From Candidatus Methylomirabilis limnetica (GTDB lineage: Bacteria; Methylomirabilota; Methylomirabilia; Methylomirabilales; Methylomirabilaceae): a DNA stretch of 32,000 bases. The position numbers and the translations under genes were made by a program. The notes beneath the pieces were generated by a model, which saw only the letters and a list, made by a program, of their open reading frames with translations, did not search any database and was not told where the DNA came from. The stretch's first letter is position 1, and each line of letters begins with the position of its first letter. The stretch is taken from contig NZ_NVQC01000022.1 of the NCBI RefSeq assembly GCF_003044035.1, positions 270,001 through 302,000 on the forward strand, given 5' to 3'. This document shows, in pieces, positions 6,209-31,480 of this stretch.

Positions 6209-6412
6209 GTAGGAGCGACCCTTGTGGTCGCCCGATCTGGGCAGGCACAAGGCCTGCCCCTACAAGGGGAGGGTGAGGGAGAAGGTGAGGCCTTTCATGC
6301 CCATGAGCGTGCCGCCGGCGCATGGGGTATTGCGAGCGCCCAACGGGAGCGCGGCAATCCCACCGCACTTGCAGTGCGAGATTGCTTCGGTCGCTACGCT
6401 CCCTCGCAATGA
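6209..6412. repeat. Cluster of REP-like hairpins (GCGACCcttgtGGTCGC; GGGCAGGCacaaGCCTGCCCCTAC; CGAGATTGCTTCGGTCGCTACGCTCCCTCGCAATGAC)
   Basis: Perfect short stems are visible. The GGGCAGG..CCTGCCCCTAC motif recurs inverted at 17828-17851. The region gives only low-complexity spurious ORFs. Confidence 0.6.
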
Positions 6413-6507
6413 CGGCGTGAGGGGGACTTTCGATGCAATGACAAACGAGGACGAAGGGTGTACGCGGTTATCGCTGGGAGCGAAGAAAGAGGGAAAGCAG
6501 ATGATTC

Positions 6508-6600
6508 TCAGGGGAACTGGCGGAGGAAGCGCAGGTCGTTGGCGTGGAAGAGGCGGAGATCAGCCGGATATGCCATCAATTCGCGCATGGCTGAGCCGAT
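6508..6600 (-). pseudogene. Copy B of the repeated gene-end module (..AMRELMAYPADLRLFHANDLRFLRQFP stop)
   Basis: My own translation. It is out of frame with the PIN remnant just upstream. It is 54/56 nt identical to copy A. Confidence 0.4.
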
Positions 6601-8815: not shown

Positions 8816-8975
8816 TCAGGATGGGTAGCAGGTGAACCGACAGAGGAAGCGGAGGTCGTCAGCGTGGAAGAGGCGGAGATCTTTGATGCCGTACTTGAGC
8901 ATGGCAACACGAGCTGAGTTCGTGGTAATCGAATCGAAAATACCCCGCGGCCAGCACGGGGCATACCGACCACGG
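8816..8975 (-). pseudogene. Copy C of the repeated gene-end module (..FDSITTNSARVAMLKYGIKDLRLFHADDLRFL..)
   Basis: This is the C-terminal part of track ORF 8816..9058. 8843-8881 and 8891-8914 align with copy A at the nucleotide level. The upstream part of the ORF is not protein-like and overlaps the ParE-like remnant. Confidence 0.4.
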
Positions 8976-9359: not shown

Positions 9360-9581
9360 ATGCCACGGATTATCCGAACCGTTGCAGCCGGCCACCCGTA
9401 TCATGTGAGGCAACGCGGGAATGATCACCAGGCGGTCTTTCGAAACGACAGCGAATCGGAGGCACACGATGACAGGGCAGCGACTGCAAAGAGACGGGTT
9501 CATCTGGGAGGTGCGCAGGACACTGGACGAGTCATACACGTGGTGCAGAAGGGAAGACCACGAACGGAACCCAATAAATAG
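9360..9581 (+). pseudogene. Truncated REP-associated tyrosine transposase (RAYT, IS200/IS605 Y1-like) N-terminal remnant
   Basis: MPRIIRTVAAGHPYHVRQRGNDHQAVFRNDSE matches the RAYT N-terminus (MPR..R...G..YHV..RGN..Q.vF.dd.D). The degenerate RVHLGGAQDTGRVIHVVQ sits where the ..LM.NHVHL.. motif is expected. It stops after 73 aa. Confidence 0.55.
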
Positions 9582-9592
9582 TGTCTGTCCCT
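9549..9592. repeat. Family B repeat, forming the right boundary of the RAYT remnant
   Basis: Related to 1011-1054. It is inverted relative to 9306-9321. Confidence 0.65.
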
Positions 9593-9640
9593 CTATCCCA
9601 TGGCCTTAGTTTGAACCTTGAACGATCCCAGTCAGCGTCC

Positions 9641-9688
9641 AGTCCATCTGAGATCGTCGGGTTATGCGGCGCTAACCCGGCCTACGCT
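9641..9688. repeat. REP-like hairpin family A, copy 2
   Basis: AGTCCATCTGAGATCGTCGGGTTAtgcggcgcTAACCCGGCCTACGC is near-identical to 931-979. Confidence 0.7.
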
Positions 9689-9886: not shown

Positions 9887-9910
9887 GGGCGCAGCAAGCG
9901 GCGCCCCTAC
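9887..9910. repeat. REP family C hairpin (GGGCGCAGCAAGCGGCGCCCCTAC) overlapping the comEC stop codon
   Basis: 23 of 24 nt are identical to 17856-17879. Confidence 0.65.
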
Positions 9911-15837: not shown

Positions 15838-15961
15838 TCAGGAACCTCCCATAGTCTCAGCGCTCTCTACATACGCGCCTTTATAACAGCCTCGCCGAGG
15901 CTCTTTCAAGCGAATTCTGTTTACTTGGCCAGGCCCCTTCACTACAATTCTTCTAATGCAG

Positions 15962-16125
15962 GTAACTACTCAAGGTGTTTAGGCTGAAGGCTGAAGGCTG
16001 AAGGTTCTAAATTATCTCGCAAGGCACGAGTCGAGCCATTCAAGATCTTTTCGGAGTTTTCTTTGATCACGCATGACTTACCCCTAAAAGCCTTCAGCCT
16101 TCAGCCTATCCACCTGAGTAGTTTC
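15962..16125 (-). mobile_element. IVS-like MITE, copy 1 (164 bp), with the ORF remnant on the minus strand
   Basis: Its termini are GTAACTACTCAAGGTG ... CACCTGAGTAGTTTC. Its arms are (GGCTGAA)3 and (TTCAGCC)2. It is flanked by the perfect 8-bp direct repeat TAATGCAG (15954-61 and 16126-33). The loop encodes MRDQRKLRKDLEWLDSCLAR stop. Confidence 0.75.
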
Positions 16126-16127
16126 TA

Positions 16128-16450
16128 ATGCAGGAAGAACTCCCCATGACTCACGACACATCACCGGCAGCTATCGCGATGGCTGAGCAGATTGCGGAAC
16201 TCCAGGAGCGGGTTCTGGATGATGCGCTAGGGCCTCGAGGGCACCCACGATCGTCTGAAGCGCCATGGGCCTGCCGCTGCGGAGCCCGAACGGGCTTCGC
16301 CCGGAGGGGGGGGCGCCATCAACTTCTTCGTACCGACTCCGGAGCGGTTTCGATCACGCTGTACGTAGTACGCTGCTCTAGTTGTCGCGCTGTTTTCTCG
16401 CCATTTCGCCAGCTTATCGAGTTGGCATCGCACGGCGATCGACCGGAGGA
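16128..16450 (+). pseudogene. Possible remnant of a transposase N-terminal zinc-ribbon region (ISKra4-like layout), read as an in-frame extension of the lptF ORF
   Basis: ..ELQERVLDDAL...CRCGARTGFARRGGRHQLLRTDSGAVSITLYVVRCSSCRAVFSP.. shows the C-x-C-G ... R..L.T..G ... C..C ...P architecture. This is a weak assignment made by eye. Confidence 0.3.
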
Positions 16451-16492
16451 GATCCTGAAGCATTTACGGTCGCTACCGCCTCTTCGACTCCA

Positions 16493-16527
16493 CTCAGGAC
16501 AGGCCCTTCGACCAGGCTCAGGACAGG
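16493..16527. repeat. Duplicated 11-mer CTCAGGACAGG (REP-like; gives the LRLHSGQALRPGSGQ pseudo-peptide)
   Basis: Identical 11-mers at 16493-16503 and 16517-16527. Confidence 0.5.
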
Positions 16528-16580
16528 TCTTGACTAAAGACCTCGATGACTCCAAGACCTCACCTCCACGTCGCGCCGAT

Positions 16581-17831
16581 GTGGCGATCGCTCTCACCAG
16601 ACGGCTGCGCCCCTTCTCCCTGATCGATCGATACCTGCTGAGAGAGATGGCAGCCTCCTTCGCACTCGGACTTGCGACCTTTACCTTCGTGCTGCTGATG
16701 GACCAGATGATGCGCTTAATGGATCTGATCATCAATAAGGGGGCTCCCGTTTGGGTCGTACTTCGTCTCATCTTCTACGTCCTCCCCTTTTCTCTCACGG
16801 TGACGATCCCAATGTCCGTGTTGTTAGCCGTCCTGGCCACGTATGGCCGCGTCTCGTCCGAGGGGGAGGCGATAGTACTTAAAACAAGCGGCCTCAGTTT
16901 GTACCGCCTTATGGCGCCAGCGGTTCTCTTCGGCATCGTTGCCACGCTCGCCACCCTTTGGATCAGTGCCCTTGTTCAGCCCGACAGTACAAGGGCCTCC
17001 AAGACGTTGATTCATCAACTCTACCAGACGAAGGCGCTCACGTCACTTGAGGAAGGGGTATTCAACACCGAGTACCAGGGGCTTGCGATCTACGTAGATC
17101 ACTTGAAGAAACAGGACGGGACGTTTCAAGGCATCCTGGTCATCGATCGCAGGAGCCAGACCGACCAGCATCTCATTATCGCTCAGGAAGGCAAACTGCT
17201 CACGAGGAATGGTGAGGCAGACACACTGATCGGGCTCCAAGTGTCGAATGGAAATCTCCATATCAGCTCCCGCGACGATCCAGGCCGGTATCGAAATCTC
17301 GATTTCGAAACCTACGATCTTCAGGTCCCGGCTAGCGACACCCTCGCTGAGGCGGCGGGGCGAGTAAAGCAAGGCAAAGAGATGAATCTCGGGGAGCTGC
17401 GAGCGCAGATTGCACGGCTCGAAAAGGACGGAGACAAGGCTGCTTGGCCGCTGCAGGTAGAGCTACACAAGAAATTCTCTCTCCCGATTGCCTGCCTCAT
17501 CCTAAGCGCGATAGGCGCCCCGCTCGCGATTCGCATCAAGAAGGCGAGCCGCGGCGTCAGCCTTGCCCTAAGCGTGGCTATTGCCGTGTTCTACTATATC
17601 TTGCTGGCAACCGGCGAGAGCCTTGGATCCCGGGGGCAGATCGAGCCCGCCCTCGGCGTATGGTTCCCGAACCTCACCATAGGCATCATCGCAATCAGCT
17701 TGGTTCTTGCGGAGGGCCGCGAGGCCTTTCTACCCGCCAGGCTTCGAACGGCTATTAGAACTCTGATGGTATTCCTTTCGCGGGCCATCTCACAGCAGAA
17801 GACCGCGAAACCGGATAGGTATCTAACGTAG
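16581..17831 (+). CDS. lptF: LPS export ABC transporter permease LptF (YjgP/YjgQ family)
   Basis: ..LIDRYLLREMAASFALGLATFTFVLLMDQMMRLMDLII.. is the canonical LptF N-terminus, so the track ORF start at 16128 is about 150 codons too early. The in-frame GTG at 16581 was chosen. The start is uncertain because no SD was seen. Confidence 0.8.
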   Translation: MAIALTRRLRPFSLIDRYLLREMAASFALGLATFTFVLLMDQMMRLMDLIINKGAPVWVVLRLIFYVLPFSLTVTIPMSVLLAVLATYGRVSSEGEAIVLKTSGLSLYRLMAPAVLFGIVATLATLWISALVQPDSTRASKTLIHQLYQTKALTSLEEGVFNTEYQGLAIYVDHLKKQDGTFQGILVIDRRSQTDQHLIIAQEGKLLTRNGEADTLIGLQVSNGNLHISSRDDPGRYRNLDFETYDLQVPASDTLAEAAGRVKQGKEMNLGELRAQIARLEKDGDKAAWPLQVELHKKFSLPIACLILSAIGAPLAIRIKKASRGVSLALSVAIAVFYYILLATGESLGSRGQIEPALGVWFPNLTIGIIAISLVLAEGREAFLPARLRTAIRTLMVFLSRAISQQKTAKPDRYLT

Positions 17832-17879
17832 GGGCAGGACTTGCCCTGCCCAGAAGGGCGCAGCAAGCAGCGCCCCTAC
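17828..17879. repeat. Two REP hairpins between lptF and lptG (GTAGGGGCAGGacttgCCCTGCCC; GGGCGCAGCAAGCAGCGCCCCTAC)
   Basis: Perfect short stems. Relatives lie at 6238-6262 and 9887-9910. Confidence 0.65.
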
Positions 17880-17898
17880 ATTGCCGCTGAATACTGCC

Positions 17899-18972
17899 AT
17901 GCGAATTCTGGATCGTTACCTTGTGAGAGAGTTTCTGGGGACGTTCGTCTTCTCGCTGGTAGTCCTCCTCGCGCTCTCCGCTATCGTTGACCTGTTCGAC
18001 CGCCTGTCCCGCTTCCTCGACGTTTCCGGTATGGTGGTTCTCCAGTACTACGTCCATAGGCTGCCATGGTTCGGATTCCAGGTCATGCCGGTGGCGGTGC
18101 TTCTCGCCGCCCTATTCAGCCTTGGGAGAATGGTTCGGCACAACGAATTACTCGCCATGAAGATGGGTCATCTAGGTTCCTTGCGCATCATAGCTCCGCT
18201 TTTGGTCCTCGGCCTCGTGGTGAGCCTTGCGGCACTGGTCCTAGGTGAGTCGATAATCCCTCAAATGAACGAACGCGCGCTGAACACGTATCGAGTCAAG
18301 GTGCAGAAGGTCTCCCCCTTTCAGCGGACCAGGGACAACGATATCTGGTACCGGGCCAAGGGTAACCGGTTTTTGCACATCTCGCTACTGGAGGTGGCAT
18401 CGGGTAACATCCATGGGCTGACCATCTTTGAACTCTCACCGGATTTCAGGCTACTGAGAAGGGTCGATGCAAAGGAGGCCCGATGGCAAGACGGGCGGTG
18501 GTGGCTTCGGGATGGCGAAATCTCCTGGACCAGGCCTGATGGGAGATATCAAGTCGATCCGTTTACGAACATTACGATTGATCTCGAAGAAACGCCCATG
18601 GATCTTGCCCAGGTCGTGCGGGAGCCTGAAGAGATGAGCTCTGCGGAGCTTCGGGAGTATATCGAGCGGCTCGCCAAAAGTGGGGTGAACTCTGTGCGGT
18701 ATCAGGTAGACCTGGCTGCAAAGAGCTCTACAGCATTCGTGAGTGTCGTGATGGCCCTCATCGGGATCGCATTCGCCCTCCGTACCGGCAAGCGAGGCGT
18801 GATGGCCTGGTCGGGCGCCTGCGTGGTGGTAGCCGTATGTTACTCGATCCTCAACTCCCTCAGTATTTCTCTCGGGCGAGGCGGCGTCCTGCCCCCGATA
18901 GTTGCGGCGTGGCTTCCCAACGCCCTCTTCACCGCTGCCGGTCTCAGCTCCGTACTCACGATCAAGAGCTAA
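17899..18972 (+). CDS. lptG: LPS export ABC transporter permease LptG, 357 aa
   Basis: MRILDRYLVREFLGTFVFSLVVLL.. is the canonical start (ATG at 17899; the track start at 17881 is an upstream TTG). It belongs to the YjgP/YjgQ family and is adjacent to lptF. Confidence 0.85.
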   Translation: MRILDRYLVREFLGTFVFSLVVLLALSAIVDLFDRLSRFLDVSGMVVLQYYVHRLPWFGFQVMPVAVLLAALFSLGRMVRHNELLAMKMGHLGSLRIIAPLLVLGLVVSLAALVLGESIIPQMNERALNTYRVKVQKVSPFQRTRDNDIWYRAKGNRFLHISLLEVASGNIHGLTIFELSPDFRLLRRVDAKEARWQDGRWWLRDGEISWTRPDGRYQVDPFTNITIDLEETPMDLAQVVREPEEMSSAELREYIERLAKSGVNSVRYQVDLAAKSSTAFVSVVMALIGIAFALRTGKRGVMAWSGACVVVAVCYSILNSLSISLGRGGVLPPIVAAWLPNALFTAAGLSSVLTIKS

Positions 18973-18973
18973 T

Positions 18974-19024
18974 AGCGATCAGCTCTCAGCTGCTGAAAGC
19001 TGATCGCTAACAGCTGAACGCTGC
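18974..19024 (+). repeat. Heptamer-periodic array (GCTGAnn type) containing an 11-bp perfect inverted repeat (AGCGATCAGCT / AGCTGATCGCT)
   Basis: 7-nt phasing of AGCT/CGCT across about 7 units, directly after the lptG stop. No T-run follows, so it is not a classical intrinsic terminator. Confidence 0.6.
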
Positions 19025-19046
19025 CCTTTATGTGGCCAATATTGCC

Positions 19047-19076
19047 TTGACCTGCAAGTCCTTTGCTGCTTATACT
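19047..19076 (+). promoter_or_regulatory. Candidate sigma70-type promoter of ahcY (TTGACC-18 nt-TATACT)
   Basis: Hexamers read directly from the sequence. It implies a roughly 105-nt leader. Confidence 0.45.
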
Positions 19077-19185
19077 TCCCCGTCAGAAGCAATACCTTAT
19101 CAAGCAAATGAAATTCCCCTCACCGCGTTCCGCGCGGCCGGTGAGGGCTAAAAAAGGGGCGCCTCGCACTCTTTATAAAAAGGAA

Positions 19186-20634
19186 ATGAACATGCCGACG
19201 TTAGCAGAAAAAAATCTATCCTCTTCGCCTGATTTCAAGGTGGCGGATTTGTCCTTGGCCGATTTTGGTCGCAAAGAAATTGACATTGCTGAAAAAGAAA
19301 TGCCCGGCCTGATGGCGGTGCGTGAGAAGTACGGGAAATTGAAATCTCTCAAAGGCGTCCGTGTAACCGGTTCGCTGCATATGACCATTCAAACAGCCGT
19401 GTTGATCGAAACCCTGGTCGACCTGGGTGCGGATGTTCGCTGGGCCTCTTGCAATATCTTTTCAACCCAAGACCATGCAGCGGCAGCCATTGCCGTGGCT
19501 GGAGTTCCCGTATTCGCCTGGAAAGGTGAAACCTTGGAAGAATATTGGGACTGTACTTTTAAAGCTCTGGTTCACCCTGGCAAAAACGGTGAGGTCCTGG
19601 GACCCCAGCTCATTGTAGATGATGGTGGCGATGCCACCTTACTCATTCATTGGGGAGTCAAGGCCGAAAAAGACGCGTCTTTCCTGGATCGAAAACCGGA
19701 GAACGAAGAGGAAGGCTGTATTCTCAACTTGTTGAAAAACACTTTGAAGTCCTATCCGGGTATTTGGACCCGCATAAGCAAAGACTGGAAAGGGGTTTCG
19801 GAGGAAACCACCACCGGCGTCCATCGTTTATACCAGATGATGGAAAAAGGGGAACTTTTGGTGCCGGCCATTAATGTGAACGACAGTGTCACCAAGAGCA
19901 AGTTCGATAATTTGTACGGATGCCGAGAATCATTGGCCGATGGCATCAAACGCGCCACCGATGTGATGATCGCAGGTAAAGTGGTGGTCGTGGCCGGCTA
20001 CGGAGATGTGGGCAAGGGTTGCGCGCATAGTATGCGCAGTTACGGGGCCCGCGTTATCGTCACTGAGATTGATCCCATCAACGCCCTACAAGCGGCGATG
20101 GAGGGCTTTGAAGTCACCGTTATGGAAGACGCCGCCAAGATGGGGAATATTTTTGTAACCGCTACCGGTAACGTGGATGTCATTACCGCGGCTCACATGG
20201 TGACGATGAAAGGGGAAAGTATCATTTGCAACATCGGGCATTTCGACAGCGAAATCGATGTGGCCGGGTTGAAATCCCTTCCGGGTGTGCAACACGTCAA
20301 CATCAAGCCCCAGGTGGATAAATATGTCCTTCCAAATGGGAATAACCTCTATCTTTTAGCAGAAGGACGTCTTGTCAATCTGGGTTGTGCCACGGGTCAT
20401 CCCAGTTTCGTCATGTCGAATTCATTTACTAACCAAACCTTGGCCCAAATCGACCTTTGGAGCAACCCGCGGCCCATAGGTGTTTACACCTTACCTAAAA
20501 AGCTGGATGAGGAAGTCGCTCGACTGCATTTGGAAAAACTGGGAATCAAACTAACCCGGTTGAGTCCCAAGCAGGCTAAATATATCGGAATCTCTCCGGA
20601 TGGTCCCTATAAGCCAGATCATTATCGTTATTAA
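19186..20634 (+). CDS. ahcY: Adenosylhomocysteinase (S-adenosyl-L-homocysteine hydrolase)
   Basis: ..[35 protein letters not shown].., the NAD site [12 protein letters not shown], and the C-terminus [12 protein letters not shown]. The track start at 19063 is too early. Real start is ATG 19186 (MNMPT) or ATG 19192 behind AGGAA. Confidence 0.9.
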
Positions 20635-20706
20635 GCGGCAATTGGATTGCCGCTAGGCTTCTAGCCCTTTGAATCCTATCTCTTTTCGGGGATAGGATTT
20701 TTTGTT
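20635..20706 (+). terminator. Tandem hairpins after ahcY; the second is a rho-independent terminator (AATCCTATC-loop-GATAGGATT followed by TTTTTGTT)
   Basis: GCGGCAATtggATTGCCGC at 20635-20653. A 9-bp stem at 20672-20699 is followed by a T-run. Confidence 0.7.
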
Positions 20707-21199
20707 GGTTTTAGATCAAGCCCTCGTGAGGGATTACAGATCGAAGCTATTCAAAAGTGAGCCGTCTGGCTCCCCTCGACCCGTCGCCGGCGTCCAAACT
20801 CTGTCCATGCTCGGTCCATACATGGTTCAGCAGTGCTTCTTTTGAGGATGCGTTCCGATCAAATCCACCACCCATTCCGATCGATGATCGCCGGTTGCCT
20901 CGCGAGCAGGATGCCGGTCCAAGACGCCTCGATTTAGGGTAGTGAACCAAGCGTGGGGGGAGACAGGGCACTGTGACCAATGCAGGAGACTCAAGATTAC
21001 GGGGGTGTAATCTACACCCTACACGGTGGCAGGCGCGGGGGATTCCCGCAAGCGCCGTTCACCTACGCTCTGGCGCCTAACGGCGTGATCTGCCGCGAGT
21101 GTAACGAGCTAGCGCGCCAAGTTGTTGGGCTGTAATTCTTGGTCTCATCCTATTCGTTCCCAGAGACCGCTGACGTCTGCACCGTTGCAATACAAATGG

Positions 21200-22429
21200 T
21201 TAGTTGATGAGAAACAGTTTAATGGTGTATTCATAAATAATTGCCGCAACGATAGAGGCACAGATGCCGAATATGAATTGCATCATGATCGATTTCTCTT
21301 TCTCTTGTTTCTCCATCTGCCTATTCCCTTTCGCTGTCAACGCGAGAATGCTTTGCATTCGAAACACTCTTAGGTACAGTGCGGTCAACATATAGGCAAC
21401 CAGATAGAGAAGTACGAACCTAAAGTATGAGTACGCCCAATGTATATTCTGCATTGCCTGTATCTGTTGAATCATCGCCTTCGTATTGTAGGTGAGCTTT
21501 TCTGATTTTTCGTCTCGGTCATAGTAGCCAGACACCCACTTGTCAATGACTCCATGGTACTTTGAATTAAAGCGTCCTGCTTCCTGGAGCCCCGAGATAA
21601 TGGCTCTCGGCTCATACTTCAAATCGCGAAGCAGAAAGAACTGAAGAAGGAGACTTGGATCTCGGTCACTCCTGTTGTCTATCAATACTTCTGCAACATC
21701 AAAAATAAACTCATCTCGCACTTTTAGCGGATTGAGCATGTCCTTTTTTTGGATAAGCATGTAAATGCCTCCAACAATAATAAATAGGATGCAGGCAACG
21801 GCAATAGTATCCAAGATGCCAAAACTCTTCAAAGATCGTAGGGTCTTGTACGCGAGTGAGTAGCGAATTACTATTTTGCCTATGTGCTCTTCAAACAGTC
21901 GCAATACTTCTGCGGCCCAGACCTGGTTTGTATGTTCAACTCTCACCGTAATAGAACCCACGCGCGAAAACAATCTAGCCGTTTCAAAAAAGACCGATAC
22001 TTTTTGTTGTTGAACAGTGTTCATGTCTGGCGTCTTAAACACAAAATTCCAGCACATGTCGAACGATTGCACCCCTATGTCCCTGTGCTCGCTATATTTT
22101 TCAATCGCTTCAAATGTATTGATTGTTCTGTTGGTGTTGTCATCATAACGTATGACAGCTGTTACTAACGACGTCATTATGAACTGTTCTTTAGCTATTT
22201 TTTGTTCCAGCAGATGGTGAAACTGCAGCAAGTCCTCGATTCGTACAATGAAATCATTATCGAATGTCTTACTCAAGGTTTCTCTGGCACCAAGAAACCC
22301 AAAAAGAAACTCCGCGAACTTCCCTTTTTTCAATATCAGCGTTACATCGCTATCCCCGTCTTGCCGTAATGTTGCTATCTCCGGATCGGTAGCCTCCCCT
22401 TTAGGCGTTATGCCGCTTTGTTGCGCCAT
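21200..22429 (-). CDS. Orphan low-GC membrane protein, 409 aa (about 200-aa soluble N-domain, one central TM, two C-terminal TMs)
   Basis: A clean ORF with a strong SD (GGAGGAActcATG). About 40-43% GC in sampled stretches against more than 60% in neighbouring genes. TM segments: ILDTIAVACILFIIVGGIYMLI, FRFVLLYLVAYMLTALYL and IMMQFIFGICASIVAAIIY. No family was recognised. Confidence 0.75.
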   Translation of the reverse strand: MAQQSGITPKGEATDPEIATLRQDGDSDVTLILKKGKFAEFLFGFLGARETLSKTFDNDFIVRIEDLLQFHHLLEQKIAKEQFIMTSLVTAVIRYDDNTNRTINTFEAIEKYSEHRDIGVQSFDMCWNFVFKTPDMNTVQQQKVSVFFETARLFSRVGSITVRVEHTNQVWAAEVLRLFEEHIGKIVIRYSLAYKTLRSLKSFGILDTIAVACILFIIVGGIYMLIQKKDMLNPLKVRDEFIFDVAEVLIDNRSDRDPSLLLQFFLLRDLKYEPRAIISGLQEAGRFNSKYHGVIDKWVSGYYDRDEKSEKLTYNTKAMIQQIQAMQNIHWAYSYFRFVLLYLVAYMLTALYLRVFRMQSILALTAKGNRQMEKQEKEKSIMMQFIFGICASIVAAIIYEYTIKLFLIN

Positions 22430-22448
22430 GAGTTCCTCCTAGTTAGAA

Positions 22449-22673
22449 CTACCTAATCCGGCGCAAGACTTGACCAGATTGCAATATAATCTGGCTCGCA
22501 TCCCGCCGGAAGAGCCCCCGTAACCTGTTCGCCACGCGGTCCAGAGAATTGGCGGACGTCTTCTGAAAACAGTATGGCCCTTCAGGAGTCATGATGCCCC
22601 AGAGGGCCATAGCGGTCTTCGCCTTCGGCGTGATGCCGGTTCCGGCTAGGCGCAGGTTCCCACCACTTGCCAT
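22449..22673 (-). CDS. Small hypothetical protein, 74 aa, 17 nt upstream of the orphan membrane-protein gene
   Basis: The ATG at 22673 is preceded by GAGGAG with 6-nt spacing. The track start (TTG at 22712) would lie at the predicted transcription start. The GC content is host-like. No family was recognised. Confidence 0.5.
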   Translation of the reverse strand: MASGGNLRLAGTGITPKAKTAMALWGIMTPEGPYCFQKTSANSLDRVANRLRGLFRRDASQIILQSGQVLRRIR

Positions 22674-22719
22674 GTCTGTCTCCTCACCCTTGACAAAAGA
22701 GGGTAGAACCAAGTAGCCA

Positions 22720-22749
22720 ACTGTAGCATGTAGCTTACTTGGGTGTCAA
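22720..22749 (-). promoter_or_regulatory. Candidate promoter of the two-gene module (TTGACA-18 nt-TACAGT on the minus strand)
   Basis: Hexamers read directly from the sequence (plus-strand ACTGTA 22720-25 and TGTCAA 22744-49). Confidence 0.4.
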
Positions 22750-23164
22750 AGGAAGCATGAGCCGTCTTGGGGGCCAACCCGCGGAGTTGGCAGTGCAGGT
22801 TACAACCACAAACCTACACCACGATCGGAACGCCTGGCCGAGCTCAATCGGAAGAGGTGGCCGGTTTACGACCGGAATGGGTGGCGCAGTGGGCGTACGC
22901 ATCTTGTCGAGGCAGAGGTTGACGAGCCGTACGAACTACATGGCCAGAACAGGAGATGCTTGCACGTATGGTAGCGCGTGCGGGCGCGGATGTCTGGCTC
23001 GGAAGGCGGGGTGAAGCGACTAGATTGACGCGGCTCACAGGCTCGAACGGAGGAAAGCCTTGGAACAGTGCAGGCACGCATCCTCGACCTCGACGCCGAG
23101 CGCGACCTTGGGGAGTTTGCCATGCACGGCCTGGCGGGCGGAGTCAGCGCAGCTCTCAGGTGCG

Positions 23165-23839
23165 TTACTTCACGATCTCCAGCAGTTCCACCTCGAAGAC
23201 CAGCGTGGCGCCCGGCTTGATTTTCGGGGGCGACCCCCGGACGCCGTAGGCCGCGTCGGCAGGGCAGACCAGCTTGGCCTTACCGCCGACCTTCATGGTG
23301 GCAACGCCTTCGGTCCAGCACTTGATCACGCCGTTGAGCGGGAAGGTGGCCGGTTGCCCACGCTGCACGGAGCTGTCGAAGACGGTGCCGTCGATCAGGG
23401 TGCCAGTGTAGTGCACCTTCACCGTGTCGCTGGCCGCGGGCGAGGGTCCGGTGCCAGGCTTGAGCGTGGTGACGATCACGCCCGAGGCCGTCTTGGTCAC
23501 CCCCTTCTCGGCGGCGGCCTTGTCGAGGAACGACTGGCCCTGCTTCTTCTCGACGGCAGCGGTGGCGGCCTGACGCGACGCCTGCAACTCCTGGACCTTG
23601 CTAGTGTACGCGAGCAGCTCGACCTTCCGCGTCCGATTCAGGACCCCGTCGGCGAGACCTGACTTCACCAACTCCAGCTCGGCCTCGCTGAGATTGAACG
23701 AGCCGAGACTCTGGCTGAGCGCGAGCCCTAGGGCGTAAAATGTCTTCTGCTCCTCAGTCTTCAGCTCCTGGCCCCTGACGACGCCGGCCGCGCCGACGGT
23801 CATCAGGAGGGCGACGATGCACGCGACGATTCGATGCAT
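23165..23839 (-). CDS. Periplasmic FKBP-type peptidyl-prolyl cis-trans isomerase (FkpA/FklB-like), 224 aa
   Basis: Signal peptide MHRIVACIVALLMTVGAAG. FKBP domain VKVHYTGTLIDGTVFDSS....FPLNGVIKCWTEG...MKVGGKAKLVCPADAAYG....IKPGATLVFEVELLEI. Confidence 0.85.
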   Translation of the reverse strand: MHRIVACIVALLMTVGAAGVVRGQELKTEEQKTFYALGLALSQSLGSFNLSEAELELVKSGLADGVLNRTRKVELLAYTSKVQELQASRQAATAAVEKKQGQSFLDKAAAEKGVTKTASGVIVTTLKPGTGPSPAASDTVKVHYTGTLIDGTVFDSSVQRGQPATFPLNGVIKCWTEGVATMKVGGKAKLVCPADAAYGVRGSPPKIKPGATLVFEVELLEIVK

Positions 23840-23846
23840 GAGGGAA

Positions 23847-25004
23847 TTATGCTCCCAGTCTGCCGGCCTCTTTTTTTAGATCCTCAGCCTTATCGGTCCG
23901 CTCCCACGTGAAATCAGGTTCTGTGCGACCGAAATGGCCATAGGCCGCAGTCTGCTTATAAATTGGGCGTCGAAGATCAAGAGCCTTGATCATCCCGGCC
24001 GGGGTCAACTCAAAGTGGGGACGGACCATTTTCATCAACTCTTCATCCGGGATCATCCCTGTCCCCTTGGTGTCCACCAACACCGACACTGGGTCGGCGA
24101 TGCCGATCGCGTAGGCCAGTTGAATCTCGCACTTTTGGGCCAAGCCGGCCGCTACGAAATTCTTCGCGATATACCTGGCATTGTACGACGCAGATCGATC
24201 CACCTTCGTCGGGTCCTTACCAGAGAAGGCGCCGCCTCCGTGACTCCCGACTCCGCCATAGGTGTCCGCGATCAGCTTCCGGCCGGTCAGCCCAGTATCG
24301 CCGTGGGGCCCGCCGATCACAAAGCGGCCGGTTGGATTGATGTGGTAGGTAATCAGGTCCAAGTCCACCAACTCCCTGGGGAGGACCGGGAGGATCACCT
24401 GCTCAATGACGTCTTCTCGGATCTGCTTTAACTGGACCTCCGCGCTATGCTGAGTGGAGATAACCACAGTATCGATGCGATGCGGCTTCCCATCGACGTA
24501 TTCGACCGTCACCTGCGATTTGCCATCCGGTCGAAGGTAATCCAAGATCCCCGTACGACGGACCTCTGCCAGGCGCCTGCAGAGCTTGTGGGCCATCATA
24601 ATCGGAATCGGCATCAACTCAGGGGTCTCATCGCTGGCATACCCGAACATCAATCCCTGATCGCCCGCCCCCTGGACGTCAACTCCCAGCGCGATATCGG
24701 GAGACTGCTCCTGAATTGCGCTGATGACGCCGCAGGTCTCGTAATCAAAGCCGTATTTAGCCCTCGTATAGCCAATGTCCCGGATCGTCTCGCGGACTAC
24801 CTTTGGGATGTCCACATAACACTTGGTGGAAATCTCCCCGGCCACAAAGGCCAAGCCAGTCGTGACCAGCGTTTCGCAGGCCACGCGGCCATAGGGGTCC
24901 TGCGCGAAGATGGCGTCAAGCACGGCATCAGAGATCTGGTCGGCAATTTTATCAGGGTGACCCTCAGTCACCGATTCCGACGTGAACAGATAGTGCTTGG
25001 GCAT
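23847..25004 (-). CDS. metK: S-adenosylmethionine synthetase, 385 aa
   Basis: [31 protein letters not shown].., [12 protein letters not shown] and [16 protein letters not shown]. The start was moved to the ATG at 25004 behind GGAGGAGG. The track start at 25061 reads through the heptamer array. Confidence 0.92.
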
Positions 25005-25028
25005 AAATCGACCCTCCTCCCCTTCCAA

Positions 25029-25056
25029 GTTTTGAGTTTTGAGTTTCGGGTTTTGA
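25029..25056. repeat. Heptamer array (GTTTTGA)x4, one unit degenerate, in the metK 5-prime leader
   Basis: GTTTTGA GTTTTGA GTTTCGG GTTTTGA read directly from the sequence. Confidence 0.7.
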
Positions 25057-25101
25057 GTCACATTCTACGGAGAACTCGAAGCATAGGTGTTCAGATCGGT
25101 C

Positions 25102-25129
25102 ACTGTAACACGCCTCTCCTGCTTGTCAA
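25102..25129 (-). promoter_or_regulatory. Candidate metK promoter (TTGACA-16 nt-TACAGT on the minus strand)
   Basis: Plus-strand ACTGTA at 25102-07 and TGTCAA at 25124-29. It lies about 95 nt upstream of the metK ATG. Confidence 0.35.
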
Positions 25130-25153
25130 GAAAAAGCCTCTGCCATGCCGCCC

Positions 25154-25696
25154 CTACTTCGGAGTCGACCCTCGCCTTTCGATGAACTCCTCCCATCGGC
25201 CCTGGGCCTTCAGGATCAGATCGATCACCTCCCGGACCGCGCCACGGCCACCGGCCTGCGTGGTCACATAGGCGACCCTTGCTCTCACCTCCAGGGCGGC
25301 ATCAGCCGGCGCCGCAGAGAGGCCGACCCGACCGAGCACGAGGAGGTCGTTCAGATCGTCACCGACGTATGCCGCCGCCTCATCGGTCAGACCGTACCGC
25401 TGAAGGAGCATCTCGTAGACTTCGAGCTTGTTCAGGATACCCTGGTGGATCTCAGGAATGCCCAACTCCTTCGCGCGGTGGGTAACCGCCCCAGACACAC
25501 GTCCCGTCAGGATCGCAGTCAGCAACCCCGCTCGTTGGGCCATGCGAAGACCCAGGCCGTCTCTCACGAAGAAAGCCTCGGTCTCCACCCCTGCCGCGTT
25601 GTAGAAGACCTGTCCGTCGGTAAGCACGCCATCGACATCCATGATAAGCAGACGAATCGCCTTTGCCTTTTCCTGGAGCCTCAGATCAATAGACAT
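25154..25696 (-). CDS. kdsC: 3-deoxy-D-manno-octulosonate 8-phosphate phosphatase KdsC (HAD-IIIA)
   Basis: LLIMDVDGVLTDG....RDGLG......G....ILTGR.......R..ELGI......K......GDDLND. The second ATG (25696) has better SD spacing (AAGGA-6 nt). The alternative start is 25702. Confidence 0.85.
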   Translation of the reverse strand: MSIDLRLQEKAKAIRLLIMDVDGVLTDGQVFYNAAGVETEAFFVRDGLGLRMAQRAGLLTAILTGRVSGAVTHRAKELGIPEIHQGILNKLEVYEMLLQRYGLTDEAAAYVGDDLNDLLVLGRVGLSAAPADAALEVRARVAYVTTQAGGRGAVREVIDLILKAQGRWEEFIERRGSTPK

Positions 25697-25715
25697 GGGC
25701 ATTCCTTAGAAAATA

Positions 25716-25750
25716 GCGTTCAGCTTTCAGCGGTCAGCTATCGGCTCTTC
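25716..25750. repeat. Heptamer array (GCnnTCA type, 5 units) immediately upstream of kdsC
   Basis: GCGTTCA GCTTTCA GCGGTCA GCTATCG GCTCTTC. On the coding strand it reads as GCTGAnn units. Confidence 0.65.
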
Positions 25751-25817
25751 TGGTACGTCCCCTGTTTTGTCTAAGCGTCATCGCATCTATTGCGTCTCTG
25801 GGTTCTGAGCCGTAGCC

Positions 25818-25847
25818 GTAGGTCGGGTTAGCGTAGCGTAACCCGAC
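25818..25847. repeat. REP-like hairpin family A, copy 3 (inverted orientation)
   Basis: GTAGGTCGGGTTAgcgtagcgTAACCCGAC. Confidence 0.7.
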
Positions 25848-25881
25848 AACGCTCGGCTGAGCGCCGATTGCCGATCGCTTC

Positions 25882-26049
25882 GTAACTACTCAGGTGTTTA
25901 GGCTGTAGGCTGAAGGCTGTTAGTCGTTGCGCACGGACTGAATCAAGGCGCACTTCATCGGCCAGTTCAAACGCTCTGAGCTTGGCATGATCTCGCATGG
26001 CGCGTTCCTACAGTCTAAAAGCCTACAGTCTATCTACCTGAGTAGTTAC
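25882..26049 (-). mobile_element. IVS-like MITE, copy 2 (168 bp), with the ORF remnant on the minus strand
   Basis: Perfect 14-nt termini GTAACTACTCAGGT / ACCTGAGTAGTTAC. Arms are GGCTGTAGGCTGAAGGCTG and CTACAGTCTAAAAGCCTACAGTC. It is flanked by the perfect 8-bp repeat ATCGCTTC (25874-81 and 26050-57). The loop encodes MRDHAKLRAFELADEV.., the canonical N-terminus of a four-helix-bundle protein. Confidence 0.8.
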
Positions 26050-26056
26050 ATCGCTT

Positions 26057-27016
26057 CTATACCACCCCGGCCCTCAGGAGGTCGTGCAGGTGGATGACCC
26101 CCTCTGGTCTCCCTTCGGGATCTACGATCAGCAGGGAGGTGATCGCGTGCCGCTCCATGACCTCCAGCGCCCTGGCCGCGAGGGCATCCTTGTCGATGGT
26201 CTTGGGGTGAGACGTCATGCAGTCTCTGACCTGCCGCTGCAACAGATCGATACCTTCCTGGAGCATCCGTCTTAGGTCGCCATCGGTGATGATTCCGGTG
26301 AGGATCCCGGCCTCGTCCACCACAGCGGTCATTCCGAACTGCTTTCGCGAAATCTCGGTAAGCGCGTCACGCATGAGCGTACCCTGCGCGATGACAGGAA
26401 GCTGCTCACCAACGTGCATGAGGTCCTGCACCCGCCATAACAGCCGCCGTCCCAAGCTACCGGCCGGATGCAAGAGCACAAAGTCTGCCTCGGTGAAACC
26501 GCGCTGCTCGAGCAGAACTACGGCAAGAGCATCGCCCATCGCCAGGGCTGCGGTGGTGCTAGCGGTTGGAGCCAAGGCCAGCGGGCAGGCTTCTTTCGCC
26601 ACGCTCACATCGATCGCAACGTCGCACTGTCCGGCAAGGGTGGAGGTGGAATCGCCAACCAGCGCGATCAGCATGAGGCCTAGCCGTTTGATCGCGGGGA
26701 GCAAACCTACGATTTCATCCGTCTCGCCGCTGTTCGAGATCGCGATGACAACATCGCCACGGACCAGCATCCCCAAGTCGCCATGCCCCCCCTCAGCGGG
26801 ATGGAGGAAGAACGCGGGGGTTCCGGTGCTGGCCATGGTGGAGGCAATCTTCTGAGCAATCGATCCGGACTTACCCATGCCGGTTAGTACGACCCGGCCC
26901 CGGCAGTCCCGGAGGATCTCGACAGCCCGGTCGAACCGCTCATCTAGCTTCGGGATCAAGGCCAGGATCGCCTCGGCCTCAATCTGCAGCACTTGTCGCC
27001 CTCGATCGGCAATCAT
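26057..27016 (-). CDS. kdsD: Arabinose-5-phosphate isomerase KdsD (KpsF/GutQ; SIS plus tandem CBS domains), 319 aa
   Basis: GRVVLTGMGKSG.IA.KIA.T..STGTPAFF.HP.E..HGDLG, with C-terminal CBS pairs. Confidence 0.9.
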   Translation of the reverse strand: MIADRGRQVLQIEAEAILALIPKLDERFDRAVEILRDCRGRVVLTGMGKSGSIAQKIASTMASTGTPAFFLHPAEGGHGDLGMLVRGDVVIAISNSGETDEIVGLLPAIKRLGLMLIALVGDSTSTLAGQCDVAIDVSVAKEACPLALAPTASTTAALAMGDALAVVLLEQRGFTEADFVLLHPAGSLGRRLLWRVQDLMHVGEQLPVIAQGTLMRDALTEISRKQFGMTAVVDEAGILTGIITDGDLRRMLQEGIDLLQRQVRDCMTSHPKTIDKDALAARALEVMERHAITSLLIVDPEGRPEGVIHLHDLLRAGVV

Positions 27017-27163
27017 GGAATTTCGGTCCGCTCTAACAGAGGTCCGAGCATCCGATCCACGACAGGGATCACCTCGTCAAGCCCGATCAACTGTATTGTG
27101 CTCACAAGGATCCTCCTCGGCTCCCCAATCCCCAAGGCAGCCGCCACCGCTCCCCGTCCGGTG

Positions 27164-28453
27164 TCATCCGGATATCCACGAGATCCAGCCACCATTCCCA
27201 GCCTTCTGCCTCTCTTGTTCCGCATCGACGCTCACCGCTAAGGCCATCAGCACCCAGAAAAGGTGGGCCATGCCTCCTGCGAAGATGTGATCAAACAGGT
27301 TGCTGACGATTACCCCTACAACGACCATCCCCAGGCCGAGTAGAACCGCCTGTCCGAATCCATCGGAAGCCTTGGCCATTCTCCCCATTGTTGCCCTGAG
27401 CGCGGCGGAAAAGATCCACAATAGCAGAATCAGACCCGGGAACCCGGTCCCAAGAGCAGCCTCAATATACAGATTATGAGGGTGGTTGGCTTCTTTTAAT
27501 TCCGGCGCATCCTCATAGACCATGGCCATAGCCTTTCCGCCGTATCCTATCCCCATCAGCGGATGCTTCGAAAGCTCCTGGACGGCCAGTCCAGAGGTCT
27601 TGAGTCGAGCCACCAAAGTGTAAGGATTCAGCGTATCAGCGCTCGGGCTCAACGAAAGAGTGCTACTTCTTGATGCGAGGAGCAGCAGGCCTACCAACCC
27701 CACGAGGATGGTCCCCCCAACCAGGATCAGGTATAGCCGCCTTCGCCCAGCCCACCCATATACAAACAGCTCGGCCAGGAGGGCCACCCATGCTCCCCTC
27801 GTGTACGTGAGAAAAAGCGCAACACATGAAAGCACACACGTCATGCGAAGGAACAGCCTGGCCCACCGATCTTGCTGCACCATTGTAAGGCACAGCAGAA
27901 TCGGAATGGTCAAAATCAGATAGGTGCTCAGCCAATGGAAATCCGGGGTCAACGAGTTGGCTCTCACTGCCCTGTGGGCTACACTCCCCTGCTGAATCAG
28001 GAAAAACTTGAGGATACCGTAGCTGCTGACCACGAACGTGGTGAGCACGATGGCAGAGAGCAGCCTTCGCACCGATTGCCTATCCCGCACCTGATTTACG
28101 ACGAGATAGAAAATGAGTACGCTCACTATGAGCTTCAGCAACTCTCCCAGGCTATACAACAGATGAGCGGCCGTGATGAGGGTAAAAGCGATCCAGGCGA
28201 TGTAGGCCGCGAGCGGCACATCCAGTGAGGTCCTCCGCAGGCTAAAATCCCTTGCAACGAGCATGTGTAAGACCCAGGCAACAGCCAGACCGGCGAGGAG
28301 GGCGCCCTTCAAGGGCCGCAGTAAGGCCGACGGCATCAGGAAGATCAGTAACACGAGGCCGTATCGAAGTGCGATCGCTGAGTACGCCAGATACCGATCC
28401 CTCCACTCGAAATGTTTTCCTCCCGATACCTCCCACATCTCTTCCTTGCTCAT
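27164..28453 (-). CDS. O-antigen ligase/polymerase family (Wzy_C) membrane protein, 429 aa
   Basis: About 10-12 TM segments, with the TYTRGAWVALLAE loop motif typical of the O-antigen ligase family. It lies within the KDO/LPS cluster. Confidence 0.78.
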   Translation of the reverse strand: MSKEEMWEVSGGKHFEWRDRYLAYSAIALRYGLVLLIFLMPSALLRPLKGALLAGLAVAWVLHMLVARDFSLRRTSLDVPLAAYIAWIAFTLITAAHLLYSLGELLKLIVSVLIFYLVVNQVRDRQSVRRLLSAIVLTTFVVSSYGILKFFLIQQGSVAHRAVRANSLTPDFHWLSTYLILTIPILLCLTMVQQDRWARLFLRMTCVLSCVALFLTYTRGAWVALLAELFVYGWAGRRRLYLILVGGTILVGLVGLLLLASRSSTLSLSPSADTLNPYTLVARLKTSGLAVQELSKHPLMGIGYGGKAMAMVYEDAPELKEANHPHNLYIEAALGTGFPGLILLLWIFSAALRATMGRMAKASDGFGQAVLLGLGMVVVGVIVSNLFDHIFAGGMAHLFWVLMALAVSVDAEQERQKAGNGGWISWISG

Positions 28454-28509
28454 ATAAGATCCGCCATCGTTACCTCAGGCCCGAGCAAGCTGAGTGTTGT
28501 ACAATCGAC

Positions 28510-28717
28510 GTAACTACTCAGGTAGATAGGCTGAAGGCTGAAGGCTTTTAGGGGTAAGTCATGCGTGATCATACAAAACTCCGAGAAGATCTTGAATCTA
28601 CTGGGGGTTCATTCCCCGCGGATTGCCGCGGGGTAGTTCATTGGCTCGATTCGTGCCTTGCGAGATAATTTAGAACCTTCAGTCTTCAGTCTTCAGCCTA
28701 AACACCTGAGTAGTTAC
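28510..28717 (+). mobile_element. IVS-like MITE, copy 3 (208 bp), with the ORF remnant on the plus strand and a nested 44-nt REP insertion
   Basis: Perfect termini GTAACTACTCAGGT / ACCTGAGTAGTTAC. Arms are (GGCTGAA)2 and (TTCAGTC)2TTCAGCC. It is flanked by the perfect 8-bp repeat CAATCGAC (28502-09 and 28718-25). The loop is collinear with copy 1 apart from the insertion. Confidence 0.8.
28607..28640. repeat. REP family D hairpin (CCCCGCGGattgCCGCGGGG) nested inside MITE copy 3
   Basis: Absent from the otherwise collinear copy 1. The reverse complement matches 2723-2755 at about 30 of 33 nt. GTTCATT appears on both sides of the insert. Confidence 0.65.
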
Positions 28718-30517: not shown

Positions 30518-30525
30518 CTGGAGAA

Positions 30526-30567
30526 CAGCCTTCAGCTATCAGCGGTCAGCTTTTAGCTTCTGAACTG
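30526..30567. repeat. Heptamer array (CAGCnnT type, about 6 units) spanning the kdsA stop and the kdsA-msbA gap
   Basis: CAGCCTT CAGCTAT CAGCGGT CAGCTTT TAGCTTC TGAACTG. It encodes the KdsA tail ..VQKLKADR stop. Confidence 0.65.
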
Positions 30568-31408
30568 ATGGCTGGTTTATATACGGCGCTACTACCTGCT
30601 GAACCTCTAGCAACTGGGTTAGAAGTTCCGGAAGTGCGTCAAGTTGGAGCATGTTGGGGCCGTCGCTGGGCGCATTGGCAGGGTCGGGATGGACCTCCAT
30701 GAAGAGCCCGTCGACCCCTGCCGCTACAGCGGCTCGCGCAATGTAGGGAATAAATTGAGACTGCCCTGAAGAGGCATCGCCCGCACCGCCAGGTAGTTGC
30801 AAGCTGTGGGTGACATCGAACAGGACGGGGTAGCCGAAGCTGCGCATGACCGGGAGCGAACGGATGTCTACCACCAGGTTGTTATAGCCGAAGCTGCTTC
30901 CCCGTTCTGTCAGCACGATCGCCTCCGAGCCGGCCGATTTGAGCTTCTCGACGATATTACCTGCATCCCATGGTGACAGGAATTGTCCCTTCTTGACATT
31001 GACCGGCTTACCGGACCTCGCAGCAGCCAGGAGGAGGTCAGTCTGACGACACAAGAAGGCCGGGATCTGAAGAATATCCAGCACCTCCGCCGCAGCAGAT
31101 ACCTGATTCACGTCGTGGACATCGGAGATGACAGGGACGCCCAGCCTCGCCTTCACACGCTCCAGAATGCGAAGCCCCTCCTCCAAGCCCGGGCCGCGAA
31201 ATGAACGGCCTGACGACCGATTGGCCTTATCGTAGGAGGCCTTGAGGATGAAGGGAACCCGGCACGCTTCACATACTACCTTGATCGCCTCGCCAATCCT
31301 GAGCAGGTGATCCTCGCTCTCGATGACGCATGGACCAGCCACTAGGAGAAGCGGCGCTCCGCCACCAAGCGTAAGTTCGCCGATCCGTACCTGTTTTGTG
31401 AGTGCCAT
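30539..31408 (-). CDS. kdsA: 3-deoxy-8-phosphooctulonate synthase (KDO-8-P synthase), 289 aa
   Basis: ..[12 protein letters not shown]......I......C......[26 protein letters not shown]...G.PV.SDVH.. and ..[11 protein letters not shown]. Confidence 0.9.
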
Positions 31409-31468: not shown

Positions 31469-31480
31469 AGATCCTTCTAG

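Follow-up and report, generated by a model that had tools for sequence, protein, structure and literature searches.

The window analysed here, a stretch of 32,000 nucleotides of contig NZ_NVQC01000022.1 of Candidatus Methylomirabilis limnetica, contains three short repeated elements, named copies 1 to 3, which are all inserted in envelope or lipopolysaccharide (LPS) genes and have lptF, kpsF-like, waaL-like and msbA-like genes as neighbours; the copies are found among lptFG, kpsF, the waaL-like gene, msbA and kdsA (window 16128-31408). Three proteins encoded in the window match those of this species, a member of phylum NC10, exactly. A sequence-only reading had described the three copies as elements with terminal inverted repeats (TIRs) and perfect 8-bp duplications, and they were found at the positions it had given: a perfect flanking duplication is present in 3/3 copies, with a different 8-mer each time. 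They are real nonautonomous transposable elements resembling MITEs (miniature transposable elements with inverted repeats), each with an 8-bp target-site duplication, and they carry remnants of an open reading frame (ORF) for a four-helix-bundle protein. Their features are the following.

15954-15961, no strand: left 8-bp target-site duplication of copy 1, TAATGCAG, identical to 16126-16133.
15962-16125, ORF remnant on the minus strand: copy 1, a 164-bp MITE of putative ISBst12 type in the 5' leader of lptF.
16012-16074, minus strand: ORF remnant of copy 1, MRDQRKLRKDLEWLDSCLAR followed by a stop codon, 20 codons, in which ~11 N-terminal and ~9 C-terminal four-helix-bundle codons are joined.
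16126-16133, no strand: right target-site duplication of copy 1, TAATGCAG, which includes the ATG taken as the lptF start in PTL35830.1.
25828-25998, minus strand: ORF of copy 2, 56 codons, starting with MRDHAKLRAFELADEV (N-terminal part of a four-helix-bundle protein) joined to C-terminal codons.
25874-25881, no strand: left target-site duplication of copy 2, ATCGCTTC.
25882-26049, minus strand: copy 2, a MITE of 168 bp from another subfamily, with GGCTGTA/GGCTGAA arms, immediately downstream of the kpsF-like SIS/CBS gene.
26050-26057, no strand: right target-site duplication of copy 2, ATCGCTTC, overlapping the kpsF-like stop codon by one base.
28502-28509, no strand: left target-site duplication of copy 3, CAATCGAC.
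28510-28717, plus strand: copy 3, a 208-bp MITE inserted into the final codons of the gene for the msbA-like ABC transporter.
28561-28668, plus strand: ORF remnant of copy 3, 35 codons, broken by a nested insert.
28598-28641, no strand: nested insert of copy 3, ~44 nt, a hairpin CCCCGCGGATTGCCGCGGGG plus GTAGTTCATT, not present in copy 1.
28718-28725, no strand: right target-site duplication of copy 3, CAATCGAC.

The 14-bp TIR GTAACTACTCAGGT is present at all six element ends with zero to two differences. The termini of copies 2 and 3 are perfect, and those of copy 1 are GTAACTACTCAAGGT, with one extra A, and ACCTGAGTAGTTTC, with one mismatch, exactly the two irregularities that had been noticed before. 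Allowing up to three mismatches, the 14-mer occurs seven times in the window versus 1.15 times expected, and none of 100 shuffled sequences reached seven occurrences. The stem formed by the two arms, previously estimated at roughly 35-40 bp, measures 34-37 bp in predicted RNA folds, where a terminal helix of 14 bp is followed by an internal loop of 3 nt and then by ~20 bp of helix composed of GGCTGAA/GGCTGTA heptamers (fold z-scores of -9.9, -5.6 and -10.6 for copies 1, 2 and 3, respectively). The loop starts with ATGCG(T/A)GATCA, the beginning of the remnant MRDH.KL ORF. Copies 1 and 3 are in opposite orientation and 93-95% identical over their common stretches, copy 3 being longer because of its ~44-nt nested insert.

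None of the three elements (164, 168 and 208 bp) has a transposase gene, and their only coding capacity consists of ORF remnants of 20-56 codons. The range of about 20-35 codons proposed earlier holds for copy 1 (20) and copy 3 (35), but not for copy 2, where the native stop is out of frame and the 56-codon frame consequently runs through the arm into the flanking DNA. A hidden Markov model (HMM) scan of the window peptides (20, 33 and 35 aa) gave no match at E ≤ 10; they are remnants rather than members of TIGR02436 or PF05635. As these peptides are too short for such a scan, homology was shown by DNA alignment instead (see below), so that the decayed four-helix-bundle ORF is supported by the alignment to intact cassettes and not by the peptides. 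The copy 2 ORF also matched an ORF fragment of a longer family member, L113, in a local tblastn search (1.3e-5), and a near-twin of copy 2 is found in Methylomirabilis sp. bin48 (L063).

A metagenome search with the Wzy_C protein encoded next to copy 3 yielded four related loci, three of which (L122, L123 and L124, 92% amino acid identity) contain the exact empty site of this copy, TATTGCCGATTGTACAAC, in the longer context ...GGGGTCTATTGCCGATTGTACAACACTCAG... The occupied site of the window reads, on the minus strand, TATTGTCGATTG, the 208-bp element and GTCGATTGTACAAC. The sites of the relatives thus lack both the element and one 8-mer, as target-site duplication predicts, which makes copy 3 a real insertion. 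The single 8-mer anticipated for empty sites in relatives was accordingly found for this copy, and the proposal of MITE-like transposition is borne out by this clean site together with the duplications common across the family. Copy 3 lies between the Wzy_C gene (O-antigen ligase-type, waaL-like) and the gene of the msbA-like ABC transporter (ORF 28679-30517, minus strand). The relatives' transporters end in ...CRLYNTQLARA and a stop, and that of the window ends in ...CRLVTTQVFRLKTED and a stop; its last 12 residues and stop codon (VTTQVFRLKTED plus stop) come from the terminus of copy 3 (28679-28725).

Copy 1 is located between a promoter-like site (TTTACT-17-TACAAT, 15920-15948) and lptF, so that the lptFG leader would hold a 164-nt hairpin. 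The ATG at 16128, annotated as the lptF start in PTL35830.1, lies in the right duplication TAATGCAG, and the RefSeq version of the protein (561 aa) starts 18 nt downstream of it. The insertion is also present in a conspecific contig (L160), where its GTTAC end is intact and perfect. In a more distant relative (L161) the element is absent, but the downstream flank is rearranged and not collinear. The intergenic DNA around copy 2 is not conserved in relatives and could not be aligned. A metagenome contig matching the window (L001, ENA ERZ4201063 NODE_11) stops inside copy 2, at window position ~25938.

The ends of the window elements were compared with those of insertion sequences (ISs). Eight autonomous single-ORF ISs of the IS66 family (ISBst12 group), from at least five phyla, have termini of the form GTAACT(A/G)(C/T)TCAG. 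One of them, in a Muribaculaceae metagenome-assembled genome (MAG; L100), is 1626 bp long, has the ends GTAACTACTCAGGTAGGTAGGG and CCTATATAGGTGAGTAGTTAC and a single ORF of 484 aa, whose product matches PF03050 DDE_Tnp_IS66 (5.7e-30) and DUF6444. Homologues of this transposase, 87-100% identical in all 120 matches listed, did not lead to MITE-bearing taxa, and a profile search returned diverse transposases. A tblastn search of plasmids with this protein led to genes annotated as 'IS66 family transposase', and the five ISs examined among them, from five species in four phyla, all have the common terminus and perfect 8-bp duplications. The plasmid ISs and two further ISs from metagenomes are listed below.

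Segatella copri: terminus GTAACTACTCAGCA, duplication GAAGCGTT.
Bacillus thuringiensis: terminus GTAACTACTCAGCT, duplication CTTTTTTC.
Geobacillus lituanicus: terminus GTAACTATTCAGCC, duplication AGCAATTT.
Deinococcus grandis: terminus GTAACTGCTCAGCA, duplication CGTCGAAT.
Ca. Chlorohelix: terminus GTAACAATTCAG, duplication AATTATTT.
Metagenome IS L157: duplication AAGAAATA.
Metagenome IS L158: GTAACTATTCAGGTACC, duplication GAAAAATG.

The window termini, GTAACTNCTCAG, start with GTAA. Over the first 12 nt they agree fully with the Segatella and B. thuringiensis ISs at both ends and with the L100 IS at its left end, and at most one base separates them from the ends of the Deinococcus and Geobacillus ISs and of ISDge4. 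The latter, an IS66-family element of the ISBst12 group from Deinococcus geothermalis, encodes a single transposase of 449 aa, is bounded by GTGACTACTCAGCA and GTAACTGCTCAGCA as TIRs, with a direct repeat of 8 bp (CCTCGATG), and its transposition has been caught experimentally (PMC12898284). Each of the eight ISs either encodes a PF03050 (IS66-type) protein or was found as a relative of a PF03050 transposase, and no other family was represented. Comparison of the sequences thus shows ends and footprint of the ISBst12/IS66 type for the window elements, which have the GTAA termini and the 8-bp direct repeats but no PF03050 ORF and are therefore derivatives or hitch-hikers rather than ISs. The earlier statement that no transposase or mechanism was known for such elements is accordingly not upheld, as their termini and duplication length are those of the ISBst12 group. 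Like the members of this group (ISBst12, ISDge4, ISGst1-like), which are spread over many phyla, they have GTAACT(A/G)(C/T)TCAG at both ends and 8-bp direct repeats; unlike them, they are only 164-208 bp long and lack a transposase, and their heptamer stems and four-helix-bundle remnant are absent from the ISs inspected.

To define the family, genomes (one per species) were scanned with the exact pattern GTAACTACTCAGGTNNNTAG. At least 120 loci were found, in Desulfobacterota, Nitrospirota, Nitrospinota, NC10 (Methylomirabilis), Brocadiaceae, Elusimicrobiota, Peptococcaceae and others, and most loci listed have an inverted partner terminus 90-480 bp away. The junction 8-mers of the 93 paired elements are identical in 34 cases and differ by one base in 11, so that 45/93 show at most one difference, versus 0/92 identical or within one mismatch among control 8-mers from positions 10 bp further outward. 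The A+T content of the duplicated 8-mers is 74%. The expectation of an 8-bp duplication at every copy therefore holds for the three window copies, whereas elsewhere only 34/93 are identical. Among viral contigs the terminus was present in a single locus, and a blastn search of the cassette described below against plasmids gave no match. Two loci, L077 and L092, in which TIRs lie 3.4 kb apart were considered as autonomous elements and rejected, as each consists of two separate elements with host genes between them.

The parent form is a cassette of 446 bp composed of the TIR GTAACTACTCAGGT, a tandem-heptamer stem, an intact PF05635/TIGR02436 gene of 118-119 aa, the complementary arm and the second TIR, without transposase. 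The full-length copies with an intact four-helix-bundle gene that had been looked for are thus present, with intact ORFs in L145 (1450-1895), L143/L144 (Nitrospira), L073 (Brocadiaceae) and L076. The products of L076 (Nitrospira, 118 aa) and L073 (127 aa) match PF05635 at 1.8e-33 and 7.5e-31, respectively, with 107-115 bits for a cut-off of 33.8. The element of L113 (483 bp) has the duplication TTAAATTC on both sides, and a 66-codon fragment of its ORF scores 62 bits against TIGR02436 (cut-off 24). Near-perfect duplications also flank the 446-bp units of L145 (GTTTTTTC/CTTTTTTC) and L143/L144 (common AGCTTGT). IS-type TIRs with a duplication, a passenger gene and no transposase, which define a mobile insertion cassette (MIC), are found in L145, L143/L144, L073 and L113. 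A protein search with the L076 ORF returned thousands of relatives, the best 120 clusters being 85-93% identical and mostly located on very short contigs (<3 kb); where contigs are longer, the gene is part of the 446-bp unit with its two TIRs and near-perfect duplications.

Alignment at the DNA level shows that the window copies keep the 5' ~100 nt of the cassette, with the TIR, the arm and the opening 10-17 codons, and its 3' ~80 nt, in which the final 8-10 codons are followed by the arm and the TIR. An intermediate deletion of 246 bp is found in Methylomirabilis sp. bin48 (L102). The window elements are therefore internal-deletion derivatives of the 446-bp four-helix-bundle cassette. A second TIR-bounded lineage, with the arms GAATTCAGGAGTCAGAAT and remnants of another four-helix-bundle subtype, MNMPATRFDDLVVWQRSQQF, is present in Elusimicrobia, so that the association between TIRs and four-helix-bundle genes is old and does not go back to a single capture. 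Intact four-helix-bundle cassettes (L131-L145) were nearly always observed in polysaccharide/LPS clusters (glycosyltransferases, Wzy_C, epimerases, DegT, SxtJ). This location may reflect a target preference for AT-rich islands, or selection.

Small hairpins were observed inside several of these elements. Units related to the nested insert of copy 3 occur at 2723-2754 (inverted) and 2887-2908 of the window, the four-helix-bundle ORF of L113 is broken by a nested hairpin of GGCTGAA-type heptamers (6257-6315), and the arms of L094 and L116 are likewise broken by small hairpins. The ~44-nt insert seems to belong to a distinct family of very small palindromic repeats that insert into other repeats. 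Two GC-rich hairpin repeat families, GTCGGGTTACGCTGCGCTAACCCGAC and GGGCGCAGCAAGCGGCGCCCCTAC, are intergenic in the window (947-977, 9656-9686 and 25817-25847; 9887-9910 and 17856-17879), one copy lying 35 bp from copy 2. Heptamer arrays outside the elements, of (GGGTTTA)n and CAGCTNT type (31410-31470, 18967-19022, 25709-25746 and 30521-30558), some of them as inverted pairs, resemble in style the subterminal GGCTGAA arms and the cyanobacterial STRR repeats.

A long stem with the ORF in its loop is the architecture of the ORF-bearing intervening sequences (IVSs) of 23S rRNA, and this resemblance, already pointed out from the window alone, was confirmed with the IVSs of Coxiella and Azospirillum. 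The helix-45 IVS of Coxiella burnetii has 444 nt, a 28-bp terminal stem with RNase III sites and two to three tandem GACAGAT heptamers upstream of its S23p ORF (PMC4990558). According to the same 2016 study, the origin and function of ORF-bearing 23S IVSs remain unclear, a relic of transposition and a mobile element in which the ORF provides mobility being given as hypotheses (PMC4990558); its supplement lists no terminal sequences. A genuine IVS was found in a 23S gene on plasmid AZO_p2 of Azospirillum lipoferum 4B (L168, 1684-4882), identified as large-subunit rRNA by Rfam. It is 473 bp long, has a four-helix-bundle ORF between arms of GGACAGA/GGACGGA heptamers and replaces the 19-nt helix-45 tip GTGTGATCTTCGATCACGC seen in a 23S copy of this strain that lacks the IVS (L169). 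Of the plasmid-borne 23S genes examined in this strain, a single one contains the IVS. This IVS, the one genuine IVS examined, has no duplication and no complete termini. Its ends, ATTCAGAGGACGG... and ...CCGTCTTCTGAGT, contain ATTCAG and ACTCAG, which correspond to positions 7-12 of the ISBst12 terminus, the outer GTAACT being missing.

The S23p-type IVSs (Leptospira; Coxiella, 444 nt; Azospirillum, 473 nt) and the 446-bp cassette share a PF05635 ORF in the loop and a size of ~445-470 bp, with terminal-stem heptamers GACAGAT in Coxiella, GGACAGA/GGACGGA in Azospirillum and GGCTGAA in the window elements. Unlike IVSs, the window elements are situated between or inside protein-coding genes and not in rRNA, and excision by RNase III is documented for rRNA IVSs only. 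An Rfam scan of the window at gathering thresholds detected no rRNA and no other known RNA family, and no 23S motifs were found in the 145 loci examined, so that the window elements are not IVSs. Their location outside rRNA, in protein-coding operons, agrees with the first description, as do the lptF, kpsF-like, waaL-like and msbA-like neighbours.

Heptamer pairs also surround other four-helix-bundle genes, in cyanobacterial plasmids, Gemmatirosa and L071 (AGTAGGG/CCCTACT, GGGAAAA/TTTTCCC, GATTGAA/TTCAATC and GGCAGGA/TCCTGCC), and no GTAAC termini were present at those examined. In the cyanobacterial plasmids, complementary STRR-like heptamers (AGTAGGG/CCCTACT, GGGAAAA/TTTTCCC) bracket the TIGR02436 or 'S23 ribosomal protein' gene much as in the cassette, although GTAACTACTCAG termini and a recognisable duplication are lacking and the proteins share 33-47% identity with that of the cassette. 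The ORF-in-heptamer-hairpin module thus occurs widely, and ISBst12 ends bound one large branch of it. IVSs may descend from this TIR-bounded form, or the TIR-bounded form may have taken up an older module. The Avd/bAvd proteins of diversity-generating retroelements share the four-helix-bundle fold and are distant homologues (weak PF22296 and NF033474 matches), but the scores are far below the family cut-offs and no reverse transcriptase, template or variable repeat is found nearby. Tentatively, and with the odds rather against it, the IVSs and the free-standing heptamer-bracketed four-helix-bundle genes might form one class of selfish cassette, mobile in the form of the ISBst12-bounded 446-bp element; in that case IVSs would be immobilised, end-trimmed copies delivered by IS66-family transposition, the RNase III-cleavable stem making insertion into rRNA or operons tolerable.

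Since the window elements have ISBst12 ends and footprint, the simplest mechanism would be their mobilisation in trans by a transposase of that group. A DDE transposase of the single-ORF kind (PF03050, with DUF6444 at its N-terminus), supplied from elsewhere, would bind the 12-14 bp termini and insert the element through 8-bp staggered cuts, preferably in AT-rich DNA, and repair would generate the 8-bp duplication. The window elements themselves arose by internal deletion of the 446-bp cassette. By analogy with the rRNA IVSs cut by RNase III, the heptamer stem might act as a device for double-stranded RNA processing or tolerance, making insertions bearable inside transcription units, and the four-helix-bundle protein might be a passenger, possibly an accessory factor; both roles are speculative. 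In our judgement the window elements are very probably ISBst12-group (IS66 family) MITEs, deletion derivatives of a transposase-less cassette and most likely moved in trans, and an ISBst12-type transposase in M. limnetica is the probable agent of this mobilisation. With respect to known systems, they share with MITEs and MICs the small size, the TIRs, the fixed-length duplication, the multicopy state, a deletion series from a larger parent and a polymorphic empty site, and differ in that this parent is a 446-bp cassette with a single highly conserved PF05635 gene instead of a transposase-bearing IS. No IS66/ISBst12-type MITE or MIC with a PF05635 passenger is described in the literature searched, nor are PF05635, S23p or four-helix-bundle genes linked there with MITEs, IS66 or these termini, and the terminus sequence itself is absent from it save in unrelated human primers. 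ISBst12-type MITEs are a known kind, whereas a parent in the form of an IVS-type cassette is unusual and the link is absent from that literature.

Several observations weigh against mobilisation by an ISBst12-type transposase. When six transposases were compared by local tblastn with all fetched loci, no PF03050 transposase was detected in the window, the 20-kb contig L001 or the 8-kb loci of MITE-bearing genomes, so that the transposase sharing the TIRs, which the sequence-only reading had suggested looking for, is known from the eight ISs of other taxa and from none of the MITE loci fetched. The only IS that matches the window termini through GGT and the subterminal TAGG is that of the gut Muribaculaceae MAG (L100), whose own flanks are not duplicated. 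About half of the paired termini in other genomes are without recognisable duplication, possibly through decay or mispairing of ends. Finally, cyanobacterial plasmids, Gemmatirosa and L071 have four-helix-bundle genes that show heptamer stems and lack these termini, which indicates that the ORF-in-hairpin module is independent of these TIRs and that it may have other routes of spreading.

This last point is also an argument for a mobility specific to IVS-type elements, in which the four-helix-bundle protein or the hairpin would drive insertion, for instance through an RNA or hairpin-DNA intermediate, the IS66-like ends being incidental. Stem and ORF occur without TIRs in cyanobacteria, in Gemmatirosa and in the real 23S IVS, the cassette has no gene other than the four-helix-bundle ORF, which shows 85-93% identity over more than 100 protein clusters, and a role of the ORF in mobility was proposed by Ralph and McClelland, as cited in PMC4990558. 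However, copies in which the ORF is nearly gone still have perfect 8-bp duplications, and the 118-aa protein matches PF05635 and bAvd only, without detectable catalytic domain. Moreover, short TIRs together with a duplication of fixed length are the hallmark of DDE transposition, and the 12-14 terminal bases are common to the ends of eight transposase-encoding ISs with 8-bp duplications (except at the flanks of the L100 IS itself). We therefore consider such a mechanism improbable.

Still less probable is an origin as MITEs of another family. Several IS families make 8-bp duplications (ISfinder family tables), and no transposase was found beside any of the MITEs, which would leave room for ISL3, IS6, IS1595 or IS256. 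These were rejected as the source of the duplications, because every IS recovered with GTAACTACTCAG-type ends is IS66-type, and the published ends of ISDge4 agree. It could also be argued that the elements are immobile structural repeats of REP or terminator type, or relics of rRNA IVSs, flanked by 8-mers that are coincidental or made by recombination, as other hairpin and heptamer repeats abound in the window and the folds are very stable. Against this stand the chance of three perfect 8-mers, ~(1.5e-5)^3, the identical junctions (34/93 versus 0/92 in controls), the exact empty site with a single 8-mer and a window without rRNA; the empty site and the duplication statistics refute this explanation, the least likely of all.

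Other repeats were observed in the first 10 kb of the window. A coding segment of 92 nt is present three times (1957-2048, 6500-6591 and 8820-8911; 72-80% identity to a reference copy), and a block of ~120 nt is duplicated (935-1054 versus 9525-9687). Both suggest paralogous small genes in this region, some neighbours of which carry DUF6036. These genes may be toxin-antitoxin-like and have no relation to the hairpin elements.

For genome annotation, these repeats break short-read metagenome assemblies, as seen with NODE_11, which ends inside copy 2, and they alter gene ends, namely the C-terminus of the msbA-like protein and the ATG of the annotated lptF start. With termini and footprint known, annotation of the elements becomes possible in many phyla, among them Nitrospira, anammox bacteria, sulfate reducers and NC10. 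The 85-93% identity of the 119-aa protein across phyla and its recurrent location in polysaccharide/LPS clusters suggest that it is not a neutral passenger. The combination of an IVS-like ORF in a heptamer hairpin with the ends of an experimentally active transposase group makes the idea of the 'IVS as a transposition relic' directly testable. If IVSs and free-standing cassettes were indeed a single class of selfish cassette, this would answer the 30-year-old question of how ORF-bearing IVSs originated and spread.

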